A stretch of DNA of 64,000 nucleotides, taken from NCBI GenBank assembly GCA_028703495.1, contig JAQVMT010000004.1, positions 42,479-106,478 on the forward strand, read 5' to 3'. The DNA comes from Clostridia bacterium (lineage in GTDB: Bacteria > Bacillota > Clostridia > Christensenellales > CAG-314). Positions 2,043 through 60,819 of the stretch are shown piece by piece (the stretch's first letter is position 1; every line of letters begins with the position of its first letter). The notes under the pieces were generated by a model that saw nothing but the letters and a program-made list of their open reading frames with translations, did not search any database and had not been told where the DNA came from. The position numbers and the translations under genes are program-made.

Positions 2043-2290
2043 TAGCAGATCTGTTTACGTGCTTGCGTATTCTGCGTTGAATGTTAAGAGCATTTATCGG
2101 TAGGGGCGAACCCATATGTTTTCGCTCGCAAAGCTGTCAGCGGAGCTGTTTACGTGTTCGCACTCGACCTGTGAGGTATGGTATGCGTAATAATCGGTAG
2201 GGGCGATTTACGTGCTTGCTCGTTCTGCATTGAATGTTAAGAGCATTTATTGGTAGGGGCGAACCCATGTGTTCGCCCGTCTGCCAAAAA
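2043..2290. repeat. Intergenic direct repeats (about 60-nt unit, two copies about 153 bp apart), each ending in the GGGCGAACCCATGTGTTCGCCC palindrome
   Basis: tttacgtgcttgc..ttctgc.ttgaatgttaagagcatttat.ggtaggggcgaaccca occurs at about 2055-2117 and about 2208-2272. The full palindrome is at 2257-2279. A degenerate copy is at 2103-2127. Confidence 0.8.
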
Positions 2291-3102: not shown

Positions 3103-3993
3103 ATGGATGAAGTAAAGAAGATAACATTATTCAGGAGAATTGTCACGGGCGCGGGCATCTGTATCGTGTTGGTGGGCAGTTTATTTCTAAGCTATTATAT
3201 AAGCTCGTTTTTTATCGACGCGCTTATTTGTTTGCTTATTGCCTTATGCACGATCGAGGTCTGGAGGGCGGTGGCAAAGTTCTCGGACAAGAGATTTTCG
3301 GTGCCGATGATAATTTTTGCCGTAACGACTGGTGTGGTTTGCAAGCTGCAGTTTCTGTATGGCAACACAAGCGGATACCTTTTCCCTTGGTCGCTGGCTT
3401 ATATGGCGATTTTTTTCTTCATTGGAGTGGTTATCGCCGTTATCAACGCAATTCCTGCGGATAAGCTGGTGTGTTATGCATTCACTCTCTTTTATCCCGC
3501 CGCCATAATGGAGTTCATGCTTATTGCATACTCTTACAATGCAAGCTTTGCTCATTCGGGAGTTTTGGCAATGAGTTTTATCTTCGCAGTGTCCTCGGGT
3601 ACGGACATTTTCGCCTATTTGGGCGGTACGATGTTCGGCAAGCATAAGCTTTGCCCCAAATTTAGCCCCAACAAAACCGTCGAAGGTGCAATAAGCGGTA
3701 TTGTCGGCGGACTTGTGGGAGCGGCTGTGGTTTATCTAATTTGCGAGTTGAGCGGATTGATCCCGATCGAATCCGTTTTTGCCGTGAATAAGTTCGTTAT
3801 TTATGCAATTATCGGTTTTTTAGGTGGCGTGTTTAATCAATTCGGGGACTTGCTTGCAAGTATGATCAAACGTTATGCGCAGGTCAAGGACTATGGCACG
3901 GCTTTGGGCAGTCACGGCGGCTTTATGGACAGATTCGACGGAATGATGTTTTGCGGTCTTGCAACGGCGATTGTATTCGTGCTTGCCGCATAG
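3103..3993 (+). CDS. cdsA: Phosphatidate cytidylyltransferase
   Basis: Multi-pass membrane protein with the CdsA C-terminal signature GTDIFAYLGGTMFGKHKL...SPNKTVEG...DRFDG. Confidence 0.9.
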   Translation: MDEVKKITLFRRIVTGAGICIVLVGSLFLSYYISSFFIDALICLLIALCTIEVWRAVAKFSDKRFSVPMIIFAVTTGVVCKLQFLYGNTSGYLFPWSLAYMAIFFFIGVVIAVINAIPADKLVCYAFTLFYPAAIMEFMLIAYSYNASFAHSGVLAMSFIFAVSSGTDIFAYLGGTMFGKHKLCPKFSPNKTVEGAISGIVGGLVGAAVVYLICELSGLIPIESVFAVNKFVIYAIIGFLGGVFNQFGDLLASMIKRYAQVKDYGTALGSHGGFMDRFDGMMFCGLATAIVFVLAA

Positions 3994-5159: not shown

Positions 5160-5305
5160 ATAGGTTGAAGTGCGCGTTTATGCGTATTAAGCTTAAATAA
5201 GCTGAAAGTGCGCGTTTATACTTTTGAAGCTTTAAACAAATTTAAGTGTGCGTTTATGCGTTTAAAGCTTAAACAAGTTGATAAATGCGTTTATGCGCGG
5301 TATAT
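5160..5305. repeat. Four degenerate tandem repeats of about 38 nt (aagtgcgcgtttatgcgt..aagctta) immediately after the dxr stop
   Basis: Read directly from sequence. The units loosely resemble the dxr 3-prime end (gcgtttaccc...gcttgaatag). Confidence 0.7.
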
Positions 5306-6761: not shown

Positions 6762-6946
6762 ACCGACAGCGGAGCTGTTTTAGTGCTGACGCGAATGGTG
6801 ACCGCCGTTCAACGTATAACCAAAGAATTATGTCGAGCAAACGACAGCGGAGCTATTTTCGGGCAGGCGCGAATGGTGACCTCCGTTCAACGTATAACCA
6901 AAGAATTATGTCGAGAAAACGACAGCGGAGCTGTTCTAGTGCTTCT
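6762..6946. repeat. Tandem repeat with a 78-nt unit (two full copies at 6791-6868 and 6869-6946, plus a partial leading copy)
   Basis: gcgaatggtgacc.ccgttcaacgtataaccaaagaattatgtcgag.aaacgacagcggagct is repeated. The terminal copy runs into gtgcttctcaatgtttataggtttattcgc, which resembles the rseP 3-prime end gtgcttttcaccctagtaataggcatcgacc. Confidence 0.85.
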
Positions 6947-9828: not shown

Positions 9829-10077
9829 CCGAGCAGCAAAGCTGCTTTTTATGGCTACGCCCCTTACCCGACAGGCAGCAAGGCTGCTTTTTATGGCTGT
9901 CGCGAACAATGGCTTTCGTTTAGCGGATATCGCATAAATAATCGTGTTGGCGACAGGCAGCAAGGCTGCTTTTATGGCTACGCTCCTTACCCGACAGGCA
10001 GCGAAGTTGCTTAATATTGCTGATGCGAATAACGGGTTGCGTTTAGCGGATATCGCATAAATAATCGTATTGGCGAC
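9829..10077. repeat. Tandem repeat, two copies of about 125 nt, each containing the sub-repeat gacaggcagcaaggctgctttttatggct and a short GCAGC-aag-GCTGC hairpin
   Basis: Read directly from sequence. ...cgtttagcggatatcgcataaataatcg.gttggcgac recurs at about 9918-9951 and about 10038-10077. Confidence 0.85.
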
Positions 10078-29655: not shown

Positions 29656-29671
29656 TTCGTGTGCAAAACTG

Positions 29672-29985
29672 CATCACAGTGAAGCTTTATGTGCTTTCTC
29701 TTGTTGAACGCGATTGTATTTATTCTCATCTTTTGTAAGGGCGAACCTGTGTGTTCGACAGAATAGCTCAAGTCGGACAAGCAACACAGTGAAGCTTTAT
29801 GTGCTTTCTCTTGTTGAACGCGATTGTATTTATTCTCATCTTTTGTAAGGGCGAACCTGTGTGTTCGACAGAATAGCTCAAGTTGGACAAGCAACACAGT
29901 GAAGCTTTATGTGCTTTCTCTTGTTGAACGCGATTGTATTTATTCTCATCTTTTGTAAGGGCGAACCCATGTGTTCGCCCTTATA
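29672..29985. repeat. Tandem repeat, 120-nt unit, about 2.6 copies, each ending in the GGGCGAAC..GTTCG palindromic element
   Basis: acagtgaagctttatgtgctttctcttgttgaacgcgattgtatttattctcatcttttgtaagggcgaacc.gtgtgttcg occurs three times. The final copy has the perfect palindrome at 29958-29980. Confidence 0.9.
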
Positions 29986-30043
29986 AGCGATTTTACGGAT
30001 AGGTGACATCGGTACGTAGGCGAGGCTACGCTGTCGCTTTAAC

Positions 30044-32323: not shown

Positions 32324-33175
32324 ATGGAAGGGAAGTTTTTAGTGGCGAGAGCGGGTTTGCATTTTTGGGAGGAGCCGCCCATTTCCGGTACGAAAGGAAG
32401 CGGAACGGTGTTTTTCGGGGGCTGTTTGCTTAAATGTGTGTATTGCCAAAACTACAAAATCAGCCGTAAGCCCTACGGAATGGCTTTGACGGGTGAGCAA
32501 TTGACGGATATTATCTGCTATTTGCAGGATTGCGGTGCGCATAACATCAATTTAGTGACGCCCTCGCATTACATTAAGCTTATGCCGAAGCTGCTGGAGA
32601 ATGCGAAGAAGCGGATTTCCATTCCGATTCTGTACAATTGCGGAGGCTATGAGAACCTCGAGGGGTTGAAGCGGCTGGACGGGCTTGTTGACATTTATTT
32701 GCCCGATTTCAAGTATGGAAACAACGCTTTGGGGCGGAAGTATTCGGGAATATCCGACTATTTCGACGTGGCTTGCGCGGCATTGGCGGAGATGCGCCGC
32801 CAGCAACCCGACTGCGTTTTCGACTCCGACGGAATTATGCAAAGGGGTATGCTTGTTCGCCATTTGGTATTGCCGGGAATGCTTGTCAACAGCAAAAAGG
32901 TACTAAAGTGCATTGCAGACTTGGATAAATCGCTTTACGTAAGCCTGATGTGCCAGTATTTTCCGCCGCGAAAGGAGCTTCCGTCGCCTCTCAACCGTCG
33001 CTTGACACAAGCCGAATACGACAATATTTGTTATTTCTTCGATTCGTGCGGTCTGTCGAACGGCTTCACCCAGGAGCTTTCGAGCGCGACCGAGGATTAC
33101 GTCCCCGACTTTGATTTAGACTTGCTCAAAGAGGTGTTGGACAAATCGACATCATTTTCCGATAAGAAAGAGTAA
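32324..33175 (+). CDS. Radical SAM protein, PflX-like (COG1313) putative activating enzyme
   Basis: HFWEEPPISGTKGSGTVFFGGCLLKCVYCQNY contains the CX3CX2C cluster in the PflX-family context. Confidence 0.75.
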   Translation: MEGKFLVARAGLHFWEEPPISGTKGSGTVFFGGCLLKCVYCQNYKISRKPYGMALTGEQLTDIICYLQDCGAHNINLVTPSHYIKLMPKLLENAKKRISIPILYNCGGYENLEGLKRLDGLVDIYLPDFKYGNNALGRKYSGISDYFDVACAALAEMRRQQPDCVFDSDGIMQRGMLVRHLVLPGMLVNSKKVLKCIADLDKSLYVSLMCQYFPPRKELPSPLNRRLTQAEYDNICYFFDSCGLSNGFTQELSSATEDYVPDFDLDLLKEVLDKSTSFSDKKE

Positions 33176-33179
33176 ACTC

Positions 33180-33400
33180 AATTAGTTATACCTGTCGCAG
33201 TTGTCTTGAACGGAGAAAAGTCCATTTCCGATAAGAAAGTGTAGGCATAATAAGGCATACATCTCGCAGTTGTTACAGACGAGCAAAGGACCTTTTCCGA
33301 CAAGAAAGGGTAAGCATAATTAAGTTTACCCTACCGAGGTTCTCTTGCGCGGGCAAAGGACCTTTTCCGACAAGAAAAAGCAGGTAAAATAAGTATCGGG
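33180..33400. repeat. Three tandem echo copies, about 60 nt each, of the radical-SAM gene 3-prime end
   Basis: The gene ends tcattttccgataagaaagagtaaactcaattagtta. Downstream copies read aaaagtccatttccgataagaaagtgtaggcataat, aaaggaccttttccgacaagaaagggtaagcataat and aaaggaccttttccgacaagaaaaagcaggtaaaat. Confidence 0.9.
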
Positions 33401-35607: not shown

Positions 35608-35631
35608 ATGTACTTGTTTTGCTGTTGCAAA

Positions 35632-35825
35632 GCCGTACGCGTGGAGCAATGGTATAAACGCAAGCTCGAACGCTTGACTAAAGACGGTTTGCGAAGGCGG
35701 ACGCGTGGAGCAATGGTATAAACGCAAGCTTGAACGTTTGACTAAAGATGGTTTGCGAAGCCGTACGTGTGTAGCAGTGGTATAAACGCAAGCTTGAACG
35801 CTTGACAAAAGACGGTTTGTAAGGG
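35632..35825. repeat. Tandem repeat, 64-nt unit x3
   Basis: ccgtacgcgtggagcaatggtataaacgcaagctcgaacgcttgactaaagacggtttgcgaag at 35632, 35696 and 35760. It loosely echoes the upstream gene end tatcaagaagcgcaagaaatag. Confidence 0.9.
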
Positions 35826-35884: not shown

Positions 35885-36010
35885 GCGAATGAGTTCGGTG
35901 GTAATTGAGCTCATTTTTTATTCTTATTCGATGGGTTCGGTGGTAATCGGACTTTTTTTAATTCTAATCCGATAAGTGCGGTGGTAATTGAACTCATTTT
36001 GTTTTCTGTA
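35885..36010. repeat. Tandem repeat, about 43-nt unit x3. The first copy forms a terminator-like hairpin with a T-run.
   Basis: aATGAGTTCggtggtaattGAGCTCATtttttatt, followed by two degenerate copies. Confidence 0.8.
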
Positions 36011-36215: not shown

Positions 36216-39200
36216 TTATTTATCTGCGTAAGCAAAATAATGAATCCAAATATACGAATAGTAGCTTGCATCGTTGCCGCATACAATCGTAATTCTGTTT
36301 TCGTCGTTCACGTCCTCGATATGGGAGTCGAAGTTGGCGTAATATAGGCTTTTGTCGTATTCGATTAAGCCCTCGAGAGTGGGAGCTTTTTCGCTGTTAA
36401 ACTCCAAGAACTCGAGATTGTCGCAACCGCGGAAGGCGTTCGCGCCCACAACCTTCAGGGTTGACGGCAATACGATTCTCTTTACGTAAGTGTTGTTTTG
36501 CATAGCGAATGCCGATATTTTCACGACGCCCTCGGTTATAACCAAGGTTTCATCGGTGAAGTCGGAAATCATGATTATCATGGTTTTGGATCCGTTATAA
36601 AGGATACCGTTTTCCGAAACGTAATTACGATTCTTCTCGTCTACCTCGATGCTATCGACGGGGGAGTTAATAAAGGCAAACGGAATATCGAAGAAGCAAG
36701 TGCTTTCACTGATGAACACGTCAGTCAGCTTTGAGCAGCTGCGGAAGGCAAAGCTTCCGACAAATTCCAAGTCGCCCAAAGAAACCGAGTTTAGTCCAGA
36801 ACATTCGAACGAAGATCTGCCGATTGACACAACGTTTGCCAAATCGATTGAGTTAACGAAGCCGGCGTAAATGAATGCTCTGTCGGCAATGGATATTACC
36901 GTATCGGGAACGGCATACTCGGTGCCTTCCATTTGAGCGGGATACCATATTAACGAAGTAAGTTTTTTATCAAATAGAACGCCGCCTTGTGAGGCATAAG
37001 CCTCGTTGTCTTCCGAAACCTCGATGAATTTTACGTTTTTGCACTCAAAGAAGACTATTTCGCTTTCGATATCTGTCAAACCTTCGCCCAGATATATTTC
37101 CTCTAGTCCCGAATACGCGAAGCACTCGTATCCCAAATAGCTTATACAGGAGAAGTCGAAGGCGGTCAAACTTGTACAACCGTAGAAGACTCGAGAGTAT
37201 AGCTCGCACAAATCGCAGCCCAATTCGATGCTCGTAAGGCTTTCACAATTCATAAAGGCTTCATCCTCGACATAGTAACAGTCGGGAAAGCTTAATGATT
37301 TAAGAGATCTGCAATTTTTAAAAGCACAGCCGTATATCTCGTAGATGCAACCCAATACTTCGACACTCTCTAAGGAGTAGCAATTCTCGAAACCCGCCAA
37401 GCATTCGATGCTTTCCGGGATGGTGATTTCCTTTAATGAATGACAGTTGATGAAGGCTCCCTCGATATAATATACGCCTTCCATTCCCATAATGTACTCT
37501 AAACTAGTACAGCCATTAAACGCGCAATATATTTCCTCGACCGAAGCAGGAACAAAAATGGATTTCAGACTTGTGCAGTTTGCGAACATCCAATTCATAT
37601 TAGTTGTATTTTCGGGTAACGTTATGTTTTCAATGGACCTGCAGTTGAAGAAGGTCTGTCCACCGTTTAGTTCCTCGACATTTTCCAAGCCTACGACTTC
37701 GGTAAGTGAGGTAAAGCCCTTGAATGCGTCCGAGCCTAAGACGGTCAAGCCCTCACCCAATATAACCTTTGTAAGCAAAGGCTTTTCGGTTTCATTGATA
37801 TTTGAACCTATCATTCTGGAATATGCTAAAGTTCCTACTTCCATATCGATTATTTGATATGTATTTGAGAAGAAAGCCAAGCTACTAGAAGCTGTTCCAA
37901 GCATATTGCCGCCTGTTACGGTATCGGGAATTGTAAATTCTCCTGAGAAGTCCCATACCGATGTGGTGTACATCATAGTTTTATCGTTGTTGTACATAAT
38001 TCCTGTTGCTTCGTCCACGAACATATACTCATTGTCGTCCGAAACAGAAAAGCTCTTTAGAAATGAGTTGTTGCAGAAAGCTTCTTGCGAGATGGCGATA
38101 ACGTTATCGTGGAAGATAACTCTCTTTATACTTTCGGATCCAAACGCAAGTCCCTTAATATTGACACTTCCGTAGAAGTGCAATATTTCGAGATTAGTCA
38201 TGAAGCAGAATGAGAACCTTTGCATACTCGGACCTGTACCCAGATCGATGTCGCCGTGGAATTCCAAAATTCTGCAGTTCGGAATTGATGCCATAAAATC
38301 TCCCTTTGTTGTGAGGTTGCCATAGAAGTATACTTCCTCCAAGCTTTCTGCAGAGAAACACTGCTCGAAGGTTGCATCGGCGTAGCAGGTGAATTTCTTC
38401 AGATCACGTAAGCCGTTAAATGCTCGCGCTCCTACAGTAAGGGTTCCCGCTGGTAATGTAAGTTCCTCTAATTCCCAACAGAAATAAAAGCAGCTTTCGC
38501 CCACATACGTTAATTGAGTGTCCTGTAAGTTGATTGACTTCAATCCCAAACATTCATAAAAGCACAAATGATCAATTCGAGTTAGTTGCGAGCCTTCCTC
38601 GAAGGTTACCTTTTCCAGATAGAAACAGTAGATGAACACACTTTGCATCAATGCCGTAATTTCTTTGGGAATCCAAACCGACGTAAGGGTATAACATCTG
38701 CTGAATGCATTTCTACCGATTTCGGTTATTCCCATATCGTTGGGAATAGCCACATCACCTCCCTTGCCGTTGTACTTTTTTAATACTCCGTCTACAACGA
38801 TAAACTCCTCTACCTGATCGTTTTCTGCTTGTGCTTCGACTGTATCGACAATACCATCGAACCTGTCGCTTGTTACATTTAAGACATCGCCGTCGAAGTC
38901 GTAGCTCCCCGTTATCACATTATTTGCCGTAATGTTGTTCACTTCCTCGACTGGAAGATTAATTTCACCTAAATTGATTATTGTTTGGTTGAGAGCGTAG
39001 TCCATTAACATCAAGTAAAAGTCGCCGTCCACGTATTGCATAAAGTCGGTTACATCCAATCTGTATTCGTTGGCTTCACCTCGCTTCCACTTATATGCGG
39101 GTATCGCGTAGGGATACGCTGTACTCACCGTTTCTCCGCCGTCAACGCTCTTACAGATAAAGAAGTTTGAAAGATAGTGATTGTCATAAACCTCCATATT

Positions 39201-42197
39201 GACGTAAACCTTGTCGTTCTCGTAAACCAATCCCGCATCCAAAACCATAGGATTTTCCGAGTCGATAAGTATCGGGAAGGTCATGCTTTGAGTCGAATAT
39301 TCGCCTTCCCCATCGACTTCTGCTATAAGCTCTAATTCCAACTGCTGATTGTTGGAAAAAGCAAAGTCTTCAATTAAAATGTTTAAGATATGTGAAGGCA
39401 TACTCGCCGATCCGTTGTCTAAATAAGTGCTTGTAACGTCCACTGCATATGCTCCGTAATATTCCGTACCCGAGGCAACGTCTCTTAAAATGTATGTAAG
39501 CTTGGTGATGTTGCGCAACAAAGACAGATTTACGCGGAACAGCGCGCGATTTCCGTAGACTTGTTGAGATAATGCGATATAACTCTCATCGGTTTCGGGC
39601 CTTTCATAATCCATTCCTTCGGGCAAATTCCAAGTTATATATCCGCCGAACGGGATATAGTAATCCCACCCAAACAAGTTGTACAGCCCCATCAAAAAAG
39701 TGTTCGTAATGTACGGATCCTTATTGTCGTATGCCGTGGAGTCGAACACGAGAGCTTTCGTCCAATCGCCGTAAAAGCTTAGGAAAGGTATAGACAAATC
39801 TACATTATCTTTAGAGTTTAAGGATACGAAGCCTTCGACGTATATTCCATTCTCAAACTGATCCAAATAGGCTATGTCTTTATTCGTAAGATACAAGACC
39901 ACCGTAATTATAGCGGTTTGTCCGCCTTCTACCGTTACTGCCGTGCCTTCTATGGTGCCGTTGCTTACTGCAAGCGTCCAATCGGGATTTAACTCATACG
40001 GAACAAGTCCTAAATCGCCGTAATTGAAGGTTTCGGTAATTACGTCGGGATTTATCGCATAGCTTAAACTCTCGGTTCCGAAGTTTACCAAGTTGAATTT
40101 AAGAGTGTAAATTCCCTCTTTATTTTTGTCGTGACCGATGCTTAGGCTTGTCGAATCCTTTCCCGTCACCGAAAGGTACGCGTTGCTCAAGACGGCGGCT
40201 TGAACGTCGGCAAGTCCGCTTCCCTGATGTCTGGGCGAGTAAACCACGCCGTTTATGTCGCGAAGCGCAGTTGCCGTGCTCATCACCAGTTGCTTTGCAA
40301 CAGTTTGTTGCCGAGCCTCGCTTAGTTCCGGCATAGATTGCTTCAAATATTGCTTAACCGCAGTCAAAATACCTGCGGCGTTAGGCGAAGCCATACTCGT
40401 GCCGCTCATATAGCCGTATGCGTTTTTCAAATAACTGGAGTATACGTTACCACCGAAGGATGCAAAATCGATTCCCAACTCGAGGTTGCACAATGGTCCC
40501 CAAGCCGAATAGTCGTTTATGGTGTAATAGAAATCCTCTTTATCCAACCTTACGGTGATATTACTCTGCGAGCAAAGCCGTTCAATACTCAACGCATCTT
40601 CAAGATCCACGACGCAAAGAGCGAAGTCGAATTCATCGGACACCGAAGGCACAACATTCGTTTCGATCGTGTTTCCGACAATACAGCCAATAGCGCCTTG
40701 AGCCTGTGCATTGAGAGCCTTTTGCTCAAAGGACAACTCGCCGCGCTTTACGAACACAATTTTGTTCGTAACGTCGATGCCCTCATAGTCCTCGTCGACA
40801 CCAGTTCCCGCGATGAAAACAATTTCAAATTCTCCCGAATCGTTTTCGCCGAGCATTTTCCCGGTAAAGTCCAAAAGGATTTGACTTGCGGTTTGACAGT
40901 TCCTTATTGTGTACTTGCTTTCCCCGATAATAAAATAGAAATTTACCGTGCTTTCGACCGAAGCGGTAGCGTTAGCCGCGTTGTACGAGGCGGGACCGCT
41001 TATTGTGCCGGTATCGGGAATATCCGCCGAATCCCCGCCCGACGTATTTTCGATAAGGTAAGTTTTGCTGTATGAATTACCCGCCGAACATACGATCGTA
41101 ACGCCGACCTGTTTGGCAAGGTCGAGCGCGTTACAACAAAAGTCCATGCTCTCGCTTTGGTAGGTAGGAAATCCCATAGGAAAGCCCATCGAAATATTTA
41201 CAACATCCACCCCTAGCAAAATGCAGTCGTTCAGAGCGCTAATGATGTTGACTATGGTTGCGCTACCCTGTGCGTTTCCTACCTTCATAGCCACAATTTG
41301 CGCATCGGGGACAACACCCGTTATAACGTTGTCGTTACCTGTCAAAATACCCGAAACGTGAGTGCCGTGTCCGTTGTCGTCCTCCCCGCTCGCGTTTTTC
41401 GATACATAGTTGAATTGAAACGCAATTTTATCCGAATAATATGCCTTCGTGGCATTTGTTCTACTCGCACACGAAAGCTTGGGAATAATAGTGTTCAATT
41501 CGGCTTTGGTAAGTGATATGGATGACGGAGCCTGTGCAAAGGCGGTATTGGCTCGCATAATGCCGGTATCGATTACCGCAACGACCATTCCGTCACCTTG
41601 GTATTCGGTGCCGTTTGTGGCGATTCCGTTAGTGCTCATAACCGAGGAATAAACAGCTTCGGTGTCCACGCTGTTTATTACCATATCCGTAGATACGATC
41701 ACGTTTTTAACTCCCTCAATTTTGCATATGGTCGAAATATCTCCGTATCTGACCTCCGTTGTAAAGGCATTGAGCAGAGCCTTGATGCTGAAGTCGGCTT
41801 CGGTTACGTAGCCGCCTGCTACAAGTGCATCGATCACGCGTTTCTGCGTCACATCGATTTTTGCGGTAGCCAAGTCGCCCTCCGATGAACTCACGAACTC
41901 GGTAAAGGAACAAGACATATCCTGTTCGGAGTAAATTTCAACCAAAGAGTTTCCTTTGATTTCCACAATCACACCGACCATTTCGTCCGCACTGTGCAAA
42001 TCGGTTGCCCTGGTCACGTCGGCGCTTAACGCCGTGCTTATGTCCACCGTGCCATCGAAGACGGAAAAGCCCGCATTCCCAGACTCTACCTCGACGGGCG
42101 TTACGGTGACTCTGCCGTTGGCAAGACCGCAACCCGCCAGAATCAACGCCATAGCCGCCAACAAGTAGACTATCATTGACATCTTTCTGTTTTTCAT
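36216..42197 (-). CDS. Giant cell-envelope lipoprotein: S8 subtilisin-like peptidase with a PA-domain insert, a middle beta-rich region and about 900 aa of C-terminal BspA-type leucine-rich repeats
   Basis: Lipobox LILAGCG. Catalytic triad motifs VAVIDTGI, HGTHVSG and GTSMASP. PA insert between His and Ser. C-terminal repeats follow the IP..V..IG..AF..C..L pattern (for example ITEIGRNAFSRCYTLTSVWIP). GGAGG RBS before ATG 42197. Confidence 0.85.
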   Translation of the reverse strand: MKNRKMSMIVYLLAAMALILAGCGLANGRVTVTPVEVESGNAGFSVFDGTVDISTALSADVTRATDLHSADEMVGVIVEIKGNSLVEIYSEQDMSCSFTEFVSSSEGDLATAKIDVTQKRVIDALVAGGYVTEADFSIKALLNAFTTEVRYGDISTICKIEGVKNVIVSTDMVINSVDTEAVYSSVMSTNGIATNGTEYQGDGMVVAVIDTGIMRANTAFAQAPSSISLTKAELNTIIPKLSCASRTNATKAYYSDKIAFQFNYVSKNASGEDDNGHGTHVSGILTGNDNVITGVVPDAQIVAMKVGNAQGSATIVNIISALNDCILLGVDVVNISMGFPMGFPTYQSESMDFCCNALDLAKQVGVTIVCSAGNSYSKTYLIENTSGGDSADIPDTGTISGPASYNAANATASVESTVNFYFIIGESKYTIRNCQTASQILLDFTGKMLGENDSGEFEIVFIAGTGVDEDYEGIDVTNKIVFVKRGELSFEQKALNAQAQGAIGCIVGNTIETNVVPSVSDEFDFALCVVDLEDALSIERLCSQSNITVRLDKEDFYYTINDYSAWGPLCNLELGIDFASFGGNVYSSYLKNAYGYMSGTSMASPNAAGILTAVKQYLKQSMPELSEARQQTVAKQLVMSTATALRDINGVVYSPRHQGSGLADVQAAVLSNAYLSVTGKDSTSLSIGHDKNKEGIYTLKFNLVNFGTESLSYAINPDVITETFNYGDLGLVPYELNPDWTLAVSNGTIEGTAVTVEGGQTAIITVVLYLTNKDIAYLDQFENGIYVEGFVSLNSKDNVDLSIPFLSFYGDWTKALVFDSTAYDNKDPYITNTFLMGLYNLFGWDYYIPFGGYITWNLPEGMDYERPETDESYIALSQQVYGNRALFRVNLSLLRNITKLTYILRDVASGTEYYGAYAVDVTSTYLDNGSASMPSHILNILIEDFAFSNNQQLELELIAEVDGEGEYSTQSMTFPILIDSENPMVLDAGLVYENDKVYVNMEVYDNHYLSNFFICKSVDGGETVSTAYPYAIPAYKWKRGEANEYRLDVTDFMQYVDGDFYLMLMDYALNQTIINLGEINLPVEEVNNITANNVITGSYDFDGDVLNVTSDRFDGIVDTVEAQAENDQVEEFIVVDGVLKKYNGKGGDVAIPNDMGITEIGRNAFSRCYTLTSVWIPKEITALMQSVFIYCFYLEKVTFEEGSQLTRIDHLCFYECLGLKSINLQDTQLTYVGESCFYFCWELEELTLPAGTLTVGARAFNGLRDLKKFTCYADATFEQCFSAESLEEVYFYGNLTTKGDFMASIPNCRILEFHGDIDLGTGPSMQRFSFCFMTNLEILHFYGSVNIKGLAFGSESIKRVIFHDNVIAISQEAFCNNSFLKSFSVSDDNEYMFVDEATGIMYNNDKTMMYTTSVWDFSGEFTIPDTVTGGNMLGTASSSLAFFSNTYQIIDMEVGTLAYSRMIGSNINETEKPLLTKVILGEGLTVLGSDAFKGFTSLTEVVGLENVEELNGGQTFFNCRSIENITLPENTTNMNWMFANCTSLKSIFVPASVEEIYCAFNGCTSLEYIMGMEGVYYIEGAFINCHSLKEITIPESIECLAGFENCYSLESVEVLGCIYEIYGCAFKNCRSLKSLSFPDCYYVEDEAFMNCESLTSIELGCDLCELYSRVFYGCTSLTAFDFSCISYLGYECFAYSGLEEIYLGEGLTDIESEIVFFECKNVKFIEVSEDNEAYASQGGVLFDKKLTSLIWYPAQMEGTEYAVPDTVISIADRAFIYAGFVNSIDLANVVSIGRSSFECSGLNSVSLGDLEFVGSFAFRSCSKLTDVFISESTCFFDIPFAFINSPVDSIEVDEKNRNYVSENGILYNGSKTMIIMISDFTDETLVITEGVVKISAFAMQNNTYVKRIVLPSTLKVVGANAFRGCDNLEFLEFNSEKAPTLEGLIEYDKSLYYANFDSHIEDVNDENRITIVCGNDASYYSYIWIHYFAYADK

Positions 42198-43442: not shown

Positions 43443-44074
43443 TCACTTATGTATTCCTTCAAACATTACGGTAGGCATATTCCCGGTTGTTGGAGTGGAT
43501 TAGCCCTCTCAAACGTTGAAAAACATTCAAACCTCCGTTCGTGGAAAAAAACTAAGCCTTTGAACGGAACAGCGTACAAAAACCTTTGAGGGTTGAAGCA
43601 AACTTAGACTCCGAACCTCACGCCACATAATGTTGTTTATCCTTAAGGTAAAGTATCGGTAAAAAAACGTGTTCTTCATCGGCAATGATTTCAAGTGTTA
43701 TTAATATTACAGCATAATTCCATCTGCACTCTCAATCTCGATTTTCGACTGTATAATCAAATTGTGTGATTTTCTCTTTCTCTTCAAGCTTATTTTCGCT
43801 TACATATTATGACATTTCGTGCGGCATAATCGGAGAGAAAGCAAAGTACAATAGAAAGAGAGACAATAAACAGAAAACGCAATTGAGGCATCAGCAAAAA
43901 AGCTGCTGTATTTTGTATGCTTACTATCAAAGTTCAAGAGAGATAAAGGCAATATGCCTTTTGCTCCTTGCAATAAAGCAAACACAAGGTATTCATATAA
44001 AAGAACTGTAAGCGCGAACTCGTGTATTCGCGCGAAAGGTAAGACATTTCCTTACGATTGCATATAAACGGTAG

Positions 44075-44097
44075 GGGCGAACCCATGTGTTCGCCCG
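44075..44097. repeat. Palindromic element GGGCGAAC-CCATGTG-GTTCGCCC in the spoIIIAA upstream region
   Basis: Perfect 8-bp inverted arms. A degenerate relative GCGCGAAC-TCGTGTA-TTCGCGC is at 44018-44040. Followed by AAAGGG-ctttt-CCCTTT at 44103-44119. Confidence 0.85.
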
Positions 44098-44133
44098 AAG
44101 GTTAAAGGGCTTTTCCCTTTACTCAGGAGCGAA

Positions 44134-50008: not shown

Positions 50009-50360
50009 ACGGCAAGGCAGTACAACTTGATTGAGGTTGCGTTTACGTGACGGCAAACCTGACTTTTCGTGATATGCACCTTATCCGGTTTGAATAATTG
50101 TAGGGGCGAACCTATGTGTTCGCCCGCATTACGAAAAAGCCTTCAAAAAGAATCGAGCACGCAAAAGCCTCAATCACGATACGGCAAGGCAGTACAACTT
50201 GATTGAGGTTGCGTTTACGTGATGGCAAATCTGACTTTTCGTGATATGCACCTTATCCGGTTTGAATAATTGTAGGGGCGAACCTATGTGTTCGCCCGCA
50301 TTACGAAAAAGCCATCAATAAGAAGCGAGCACGCAAAAGCCTCAATCACGATACGGCAAT
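50009..50360. repeat. Tandem repeat, 172-nt unit x2, each carrying the palindromic element
   Basis: acggcaaggcagtacaacttgattgaggttgcgtttacgtga.ggcaaa.ctgacttttcgtgatatgcaccttatccggtttgaataattgtaggggcgaacctatgtgttcgcccgcattacgaaaaagcc... at 50009 and 50181. Palindromes at 50104-50125 and 50276-50297. Confidence 0.9.
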
Positions 50361-60600: not shown

Positions 60601-60819
60601 ACATCGGAACAAAGAAAAAGCCGATGAACGCTGAAGCTTAGTTGCATAGGCACAAATAAAAAATCGATGCGTGCTAAGCCTATTTGCATCGGTACGAAGA
60701 AAAGAATAAACACCCGTAAACGCGGTTGCTCCTCGACAATTCGGGGCGCAAATCGTGCTTTGCGGGTTTTTTCACGCCTGACAAGTATTTATGCTTGTTT
60801 TCTTGGCTTTTCGCTCGAC

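Follow-up and report, generated by a model that had tools for sequence, protein, structure and literature searches.

A GTAG-headed palindromic repeat in a Clostridia genome is probably a REP element of the type that accompanies subclass 2.4 transposases

Repeat copies and their genomic neighborhoods

The window analyzed here, a 64-kb stretch of DNA from a Clostridia genome, has a G+C content of ~46% and a rising cumulative GC skew. It contains the operon from spoIIIAA to spoIIIAH, and the host is therefore an endospore-forming Firmicute. Copies of one short palindrome are found in four intergenic regions of the window: (i) between hslU and uppS, both on the plus strand; (ii) between the genes for a pseudouridine synthase and a SAM methyltransferase, both on the minus strand, where three copies are antisense to both neighbors; (iii) between an araC-family gene and spoIIIAA, both on the plus strand, where the last of two copies is 38 nt upstream of spoIIIAA; and (iv) downstream of the plus-strand gene spoIIIAH, where two copies are followed by a small minus-strand ORF and then by a CN hydrolase (nitrilase-family) gene. 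Three of the four regions are located 3' of a co-directional gene. None of the nine copies overlaps a called gene, no T-run follows any of them, and no terminator-like structure was called at these sites. A preliminary description of this DNA had stated that the repeat always lies in non-coding DNA and that, never being followed by a U-tract, it is not a typical intrinsic terminator; both statements hold. No promoters were called at the copies in the window, and no Rfam covariance model matched the window at the gathering score.

The same description had defined the repeat as a 23-nt palindrome, GGGCGAAC-CCATGTG-GTTCGCCC. The repeat is real, but this definition is one base (an extra G) too long: the 23-mer is absent from the window even at up to three mismatches, and so are its arms combined with a 7-nt center. 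The corrected unit is the 22-nt sequence GGGCGAAC-CCATGT-GTTCGCCC, whose 8-bp arms enclose a 6-nt loop. The copy at position 2257 reads GGGCGAACCCATGTGTTCGCCC (22 nt, arms of 8 bp, loop CCATGT), and the segment 2250-2280 is GGTAG GGGCGAAC CCATGT GTTCGCCC G.

Scanning the window with the corrected unit revealed three exact copies (2257-2278, 29959-29980, and 44075-44096) and two copies with a single mismatch that changes the loop to CTATGT (50104-50125 and 50276-50297). These five intact copies compare with none expected from 100 shuffles of the window. Four degenerate copies with four or five mismatches were found by a Hamming scan (2104-2125, 29739-29760, 29849-29870, and 44012-44033); the last is the degenerate relative near spoIIIAA that had earlier been placed at 44018-44040. 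All nine copies, across all four regions, are on the plus strand. Each is directly preceded by a tetranucleotide head, either GTAG (five copies) or GTAA (four copies), and not by the hexanucleotide GGTAGG proposed at first. The identical 22-mers occur in three unlinked regions, in two of which the complete 26-mer, GTAG included, is identical. A search of the window for other GTAG-headed families gave 15 candidates versus 4-14 in shuffles; only the present family stands out. The individual copies and the regular arrays that contain them are listed in Table 1.

The copies show the features by which GTAG-tagged REPs are recognized (Di Nocera 2013; Nunvar 2010), namely, a stem-loop palindrome, a 5' GT[AG]G tetranucleotide, and an extragenic location, and are called REPs below. 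The GTAA head of four copies lies outside the published GT[AG]G degeneracy.

Table 1. REP copies and REP-containing tandem arrays in the 64-kb window
Feature	Position	Strand	Remarks
Degenerate REP GTAG-GGGCGAACCCATATGTTTTCGC, 3' arm decayed	2100..2125	+	4 mismatches; folds no better than shuffles
Truncated REP head GTAGGGGCGA fused to TTTACGTGCTTGC at a junction within a local head-to-tail duplication	2197..2206	+	
Intact REP, GTAG head + GGGCGAAC-CCATGT-GTTCGCCC	2253..2278	+	hslU/uppS spacer; fold -9.9 kcal/mol, z = -3.9
Tandem array, 110 nt x 2.8, three REPs head-to-tail	29671..29977	.	
Degenerate REP, GTAA head, loop CTGTGT, 3' arm GTTCGACA	29735..29760	+	unit 1 of the 110-nt array
Degenerate REP, same sequence as the copy at 29735	29845..29870	+	unit 2 of the 110-nt array
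Intact hairpin, GTAA head	29955..29980	+	last unit of the 110-nt array; fold -12.1 kcal/mol, z = -7.0
Variant REP GTAA-GCGCGAAC-TCGTGT-ATTCGCGC	44008..44033	+	fold -8.5 kcal/mol
Intact REP, head-to-tail with the copy at 44008	44071..44096	+	38 nt 5' of the spoIIIAA start codon
Tandem array, 172 nt x 2.0, two REPs; bounded by microhomology ACGGCAA	50009..50359	.	
Intact REP, loop CTATGT	50100..50125	+	unit 1 of the 172-nt array, 3' of spoIIIAH
Intact REP, loop CTATGT	50272..50297	+	unit 2 of the 172-nt array

Single-stranded DNA folds of the intact copies have energies of -9 to -12 kcal/mol, with z-scores of -2.8 to -7.0 relative to shuffles, and the palindrome folds equally in both orientations. 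At 29953-29986 the GTAA head of the copy at 29959 pairs with a downstream TTAT, and the stem is thereby extended to 14 bp ("double-foot"-like). In the copy at 44012, the second stem pair carries a G-to-C change together with the complementary change in the opposite arm; therefore, stem pairing is preserved.

Tandem arrays and flanking sequences

Within a region, the multiplicity of REPs comes from head-to-tail tandem arrays. Besides the two regular arrays, which confirm the earlier remark that the repeat is often embedded in tandem repeats, a third, irregular head-to-tail array occupies 2040-2280. The microhomology at the boundaries of the 172-nt array indicates that the REP was passively duplicated there. 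Apart from a weak upstream motif, the four regions have unrelated flanks; thus, the family is not merely one duplicated segment, the outcome against which the preliminary description had cautioned.

The weak motif common to the regions, TTTAYGTGCTTGC, is located 50-60 nt 5' of the REPs. An upstream motif GTTTACGTG(C/A)T(T/G)GC was observed near REPs at 2053-2066, 2148-2161, 2206-2219, 50041-50054, and 50213-50226; at up to two mismatches it has six matches versus 1.8 expected, one of which (3973-3986) is away from REPs. The GTTTACGTG-type motif may be a decayed 3' half of a REP (cf. ATGTGTTCGC) or a part of a larger mobile unit. The upstream 50-60 nt were also considered as a remnant of a transposase C terminus, and this idea was rejected: an HMM of 12 C-terminal halves, compared with the six-frame translation, found nothing beyond GEHxGSPL (E ~2). 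The motif TTTAYGTGCTTGC, too, may be a decayed 3' half of a REP. In the viral contigs L124 and L134, the heptanucleotide GTTTACG also lies 3' of the REP.

The intact REP of region (iii) lies 5' of the GTG start of spoIIIAA and is therefore within the leader or promoter region of the sporulation operon. A second small hairpin, AAAGGGCTTTTCCCTTT, is located at 44105-44121, in the interval (44097-44133) between the REP at 44071-44096 and this GTG start.

Many further intergenic tandem arrays, with units of 38-123 nt in 2-3.6 copies, are free of REPs: 5164-5297, 6764-6939, 9833-10077, 33156-33320, 35625-35819, 35889-36007, and 60602-60703. Several of their units hold a hairpin of their own; the array at 35889-36007 consists of a terminator-like hairpin with a T-run, repeated three times. 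The spacers that contain these arrays are much shorter in related genomes of the same gene order, and the present Clostridia genome seems to be characterized by tandem duplication between genes. Another feature of the window is a minus-strand ORF of 1993 aa (36216-42197) encoding subtilase (S8), PA, and Fn3-like domains together with seven stretches of BspA-type leucine-rich repeats; its predicted product is probably a cell-surface protease.

Strain, relatives, and assembly breaks

Only one protein, from one sequencing run, matches the HslU encoded in the window at 100% identity, and no other exceeds 74%; the nearest named matches come from MAGs labeled "Clostridia bacterium". Exact-protein look-ups found the strain in one public run only, SRR22315503, with the same regions as the window. 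In the short-read Logan assembly of this run, the contigs are 100% identical to the window but are interrupted at the tandem and REP arrays or inside them: L120 ends at window position 6834, L135 starts near 50330, and L136 ends within the array at 29671-29977, ~106 nt beyond the methyltransferase gene. Contig breaks at these positions are consistent with a repeat and give no copy count.

The spacer between hslU and uppS is 344 nt long here versus ~100 nt in the syntenic genomes with HslU proteins of 73-74% identity, and the syntenic hslU-uppS spacers of these nearest genomes contain no REP. The longer spacer is consistent with an insertion followed by local amplification; the relatives are too distant to define its boundaries.

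Distribution of the hairpin in other genomes

The hairpin was sought in one genome per species, 185,579 species in total, using the pattern GGGCGAACCNNTGTGTTCGCCC, which covers the hairpin alone; the GTAG head was not part of the query. The pattern specifies 20 bases, so that ~1 chance match is expected in the 596 Gb scanned on both strands. The scan yielded at least 136 matches in at least 119 loci from many phyla. The sources include Oscillospiraceae, other Clostridia, Syntrophomonadaceae, Bacteroidota, Nitrospirota, Desulfobulbaceae (cable bacteria), Chloroflexota, Gammaproteobacteria, Planctomycetota, Desantisbacteria, and WOR-3, among others. More than 100 genomes contain the hairpin together with its GTAG head, and the identical site is present in more than 20 phyla. 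Among the matches listed, GTAG precedes 113 of the 133 whose flank is intact. No homology between the window and any of the 119 loci listed was detected.

Several features of these matches characterize the family outside the window. Matches inside long ORFs are depleted, amounting to 43 of the 136 listed (32%) although long ORFs occupy 82% of the loci. Of the 136 matches listed, 65 are accompanied within 150 nt by an inverted partner hairpin with GTAG facing outward, and among these the commonest partner stem is GGGCAGAC. Single copies make up 13 of the 23 listed matches in Firmicutes and 47 of the 113 in other phyla, proportions that are not clearly different. The 26-mer also occurs in 11 viral contigs. 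One of them, L134, carries seven 110-nt units, each composed of the present REP and an inverted GGGCAGAC REP with a spacer between them, and is a textbook BIME/REPIN array. Neither an inverted partner nor a GGGCAGAC-type hairpin was found in the window; therefore, the terms BIME and REPIN do not apply to the copies described here.

In several unrelated genomes (L125, downstream of the REP, and L049, L015, L069, and L101), an intact copy is immediately followed by tandem repeats, with a period of ~12-20 nt, of only the REP's 3' half (..TGTGTTCGCCC), which suggests slippage or breakage within the hairpin. A preference of the hairpin for the G-rich strand, taken by GC skew as a proxy for the lagging-strand template, was also considered. 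The 136 matches listed divide 57 versus 79 (p = 0.07), in the wrong direction, and the same test per locus gives 32 versus 30; the idea is unsupported. The uniform plus-strand orientation in the window (four of four independent regions) is not significant.

Association with Y1 transposase genes

The loci were searched for transposase genes by tblastn with N- and C-terminal protein halves from which the hairpin-encoded part had been excluded. A Y1/HUH transposase gene with the motifs NHxH, WQ, and YIxNNP is present in 14 of the 119 8-kb loci listed. Such a gene usually occurs about once per genome, and hence less than one co-occurrence would be expected. In approximately 10 of the 14 loci, the hairpin is inserted in-frame between the HuH and Tyr motifs (L004, L014, L059, L088, L090, L108, L109, and others), and in the rest it is located within ~100 nt of the gene. 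A case from the Clostridia is the Alkaliphilus MAG locus L042, in which the REP lies just 3' of the transposase gene.

The transposase ORFs are ~190-250 aa long and share a common order of segments. The HuH motif (MPNH[IFV]H.II) comes first, followed by VGADLRVCP, a spacer of variable length, GEH[IMT]GSPL, and finally WQRNYYEHIIR and YIxNNP. The segment VGADLRVCP is encoded by the partner hairpin, and GEH[IMT]GSPL is the present hairpin read on the complementary strand. In several loci, a conserved stretch precedes GTAG on its 5' side, and the other strand encodes ...GEHIGSPLH-VVQWFKTMTTNEYI... at this place. The proteins match the Pfam family Y1_Tnp above its cut-off; their only NCBIfam match, REP_Tyr_transpos (E = 1e-13 to 1e-17), is below the equivalog cut-off, and no solved structure matches them by sequence. 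The two in-frame hairpins are separated by ~4 to ~60 codons (L014, 1888-2647; L059, 2091-2736; L088, 5725-6403), and the intervening sequence may itself be repetitive, as with ETHETGSGE... in L014 and the RVCPDEN units in L059.

No Y1 transposase gene was found in the 64-kb window, where tblastn with two subclass-2.4 proteins detected only the hairpin-encoded peptide. RAYTs usually occur once per genome, and therefore absence from 64 kb says little. For the present Clostridia genome, we infer a RAYT link.

Nature of the element

The element probably belongs to the GTAG-tagged REPs, and among these to the "canonical long REP" type, which accompanies the TnpA_REP/RAYT proteins of TnpA_Y1 subclass 2.4. 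The observations behind this assignment are the anatomy of the repeat, its non-random copy number and extragenic location, the identity of hairpin and GTAG across phyla, and the association with subclass-2.4-like genes in other genomes. The assignment supports the REP/RAYT reading. A site for a REP-associated tyrosine transposase, one of the possibilities raised in the preliminary description, is thus favored by the combination of GTAG with a palindrome, by its recurrence in more than 100 genomes, and by the Y1/HUH genes in 14 of the 119 loci listed. From the label "REP/BIME-like or MITE-like" given there, the REP-like part is retained and the BIME-like part is dropped, the alternating orientation being absent from nine copies that are all on the plus strand.

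By analogy with the systems of E. coli and S. maltophilia, dispersal could proceed as follows. At a replication fork, for instance, or wherever else the plus strand becomes single-stranded, the palindrome of 22 nt would fold into the 8-bp hairpin, and a monomeric HUH/Tyr enzyme would bind this hairpin together with the unpaired 5' GTAG. GTAG would then guide the cut at a nearby dinucleotide, and strand transfer would seed new intergenic copies. Local multiplication would follow by ordinary tandem duplication of a REP with its flank. We infer that the transposase that moved the copies is, or formerly was, encoded in the present genome. Besides the absence of a Y1 transposase gene from the 64-kb window, two points count against this explanation. 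Four copies have GTAA, and changes in the last two positions of the tetranucleotide abolish cleavage in the tested systems; copies with a GTAA head or decayed arms are probably no longer substrates. In addition, what moves in the current model is an inverted doublet (REPIN), whereas the copies here are single or head-to-tail.

A broader reading joins these observations, and we regard it as doubtful. The 26-nt REP would be near-invariant across bacteria and have its master copy in-frame in subclass-2.4 tnpA_REP genes, and enzyme and substrate would thus move together between phyla. In the present Clostridia lineage, unlike in the REPIN model, it would spread as single hairpins of one orientation on the lagging-strand template and trigger head-to-tail amplification of itself and its flank, possibly via breakpoints in the hairpin (2197-2206; units at 29739 and 29849).

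It is possible, although on balance rather unlikely, that the copies are relics, seeded long ago by a subclass-2.4 transposase since lost, and that their present number reflects only passive tandem duplication and drift. Such a history would agree with the degeneration of four of the nine copies, with the four GTAA heads, which are probably not cleavable, and with the local tandem arrays that account for most of the multiplicity, one of them bounded by simple microhomology. REPtrons have also been deleted in many E. coli strains (PMC3733652). The lack of a transposase gene within the 64-kb window points the same way but carries little weight for a gene usually present once per genome. The base-identical 22-mers in three unlinked regions, two of which share the identical 26-mer including GTAG, speak against old relics and argue for recent copying or ongoing homogenization.

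We consider it improbable that the repeat is primarily an RNA element, transcribed at gene ends and acting in mRNA 3'-end protection, in pausing or termination, or as a processing mark. Three of the four regions are suitably placed 3' of a co-directional gene, and the palindrome would fold equally in a transcript of either direction; furthermore, E. coli REPs are reported to stabilize upstream mRNA and GTAG REPs to lie mostly 3' of coding regions (PMC3733652). However, no copy is followed by a T/U tract, no Rfam match was found in the window, and one region is antisense to both of its neighbors. The asymmetric GTAG, retained across phyla, and the presence of the hairpin inside transposase genes point to a recognition element at the DNA level. 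An effect of the hairpin on neighboring transcripts would be secondary, and the RNA reading explains a secondary use at most. An operator, by which a host transcription factor or nucleoid protein would control the neighboring genes, is very improbable: the perfect 8-bp inverted repeat with a 6-bp spacer, its intergenic position, and the copy upstream of spoIIIAA have the form of such a site, but the neighbors are functionally unrelated (hslU/uppS, a pair of rRNA or tRNA modification genes, spoIIIA, and a CN hydrolase gene), the same site is found, in more than 20 phyla, beside unrelated genes and inside Y1 transposase genes, the copies are tandemly reiterated and decay freely, and the regulator site mentioned in the preliminary description found nothing in its favor.

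As a GTAG-tagged REP, the repeat provides a defined family for a poorly sampled Clostridia genome, whose HslU shares no more than 74% identity with any from outside the strain, and it accounts for inflated intergenic spacers and for breaks in the short-read assembly. A member of the Firmicutes thereby joins the hosts of a REP/transposase system for which most descriptions concern Cyanobacteria, Bacteroidetes, and Proteobacteria. The conservation of hairpin and GTAG across phyla makes the sequence a convenient probe with which to screen metagenomes for REP systems of subclass 2.4.

Comparison with known REP systems

GTAG-tagged REPs are palindromes of 20-40 bp that usually occur in more than 100 copies per genome; the window holds nine copies in four regions per 64 kb. 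Subclass 2.4 reportedly corresponds approximately to the RAYT Group 4 of Bertels et al. 2017. TnpA_Y1 subclass 2.4 was defined by Quentin et al. 2018 (PMC6006769) by the motifs NH[IFV]H, WQ, and YIxNNP. Its canonical long REPs have a 5' GT[AG]G and three consecutive G-C base pairs at the bottom of the stem, they are often inserted in-frame in the transposase gene, and the hosts named are Cyanobacteria, Bacteroidetes, and "various phyla" (PMC6006769). The present repeat resembles them in several respects: (i) three G-C pairs form the stem foot after the head (arms GGGCGAAC / GTTCGCCC), (ii) the copies are dispersed extragenically and the family is spread patchily over many phyla, and (iii) the identical hairpin is found in-frame in transposase genes, as seen in the loci of other genomes only. 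It differs from the published description in its host, an uncultured spore-forming member of the Clostridia, in the GTAA head of four copies, in the arrangement of the copies, which are only single or head-to-tail, and in having no tnpA_REP within the 64-kb window.

The superfamily of GTAG REPs described by Di Nocera et al. 2013 (PMC3733652) comprises 24 families from 8 phyla, with no mention of Firmicutes or Clostridia. The unpaired terminal GTAG, the G+C-rich stem (6-13 bp in that superfamily), and the intergenic location are common to these REPs and to the present one, and in their clusters, too, units are reiterated in tandem with flanking DNA (PMC3733652). Most described families have loops of 2-4 nt, whereas the loop is 6 nt (CYRTGT) here.

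Better-known systems share parts of this architecture. E. coli REP/BIME and Pseudomonas REPIN elements are likewise short extragenic palindromes with a GTAG head that are linked to a Y1 transposase present in single copy; however, E. coli REPs are imperfect, bulged, and alternating (BIME), REPINs are inverted doublets, and neither arrangement occurs in the window. The subterminal hairpins of IS200/IS605 also combine a single-stranded DNA hairpin with a 5' guide tetranucleotide read by a Y1 HUH transposase, but they bound a tnpA (and tnpB) element, whereas the hairpins of the window are solitary and enclose no gene. The E. coli and S. maltophilia enzymes bind the folded single strand and require GTAG for cleavage, which is abolished by changes at positions 3 and 4; cleavage takes place at a CT dinucleotide to either side of the hairpin, and strand transfer follows (PMC3479197, PMC8266576). 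The closest tested architecture is that of the S. maltophilia REP (SMAG; Corneloup et al. 2021, PMC8266576), which likewise consists of GTAG and a perfect 8-bp palindrome, and for whose TnpA_REP the binding of folded single-stranded DNA, GTAG-dependent CT cleavage, and loop-specific recognition were demonstrated. SMAG has a 3-nt loop, another stem sequence, and an enzyme of subclass 2.5, and it differs in these respects from the present REP. The Clostridia genome represents a new host lineage for a known, well-described family and not a new kind of element.
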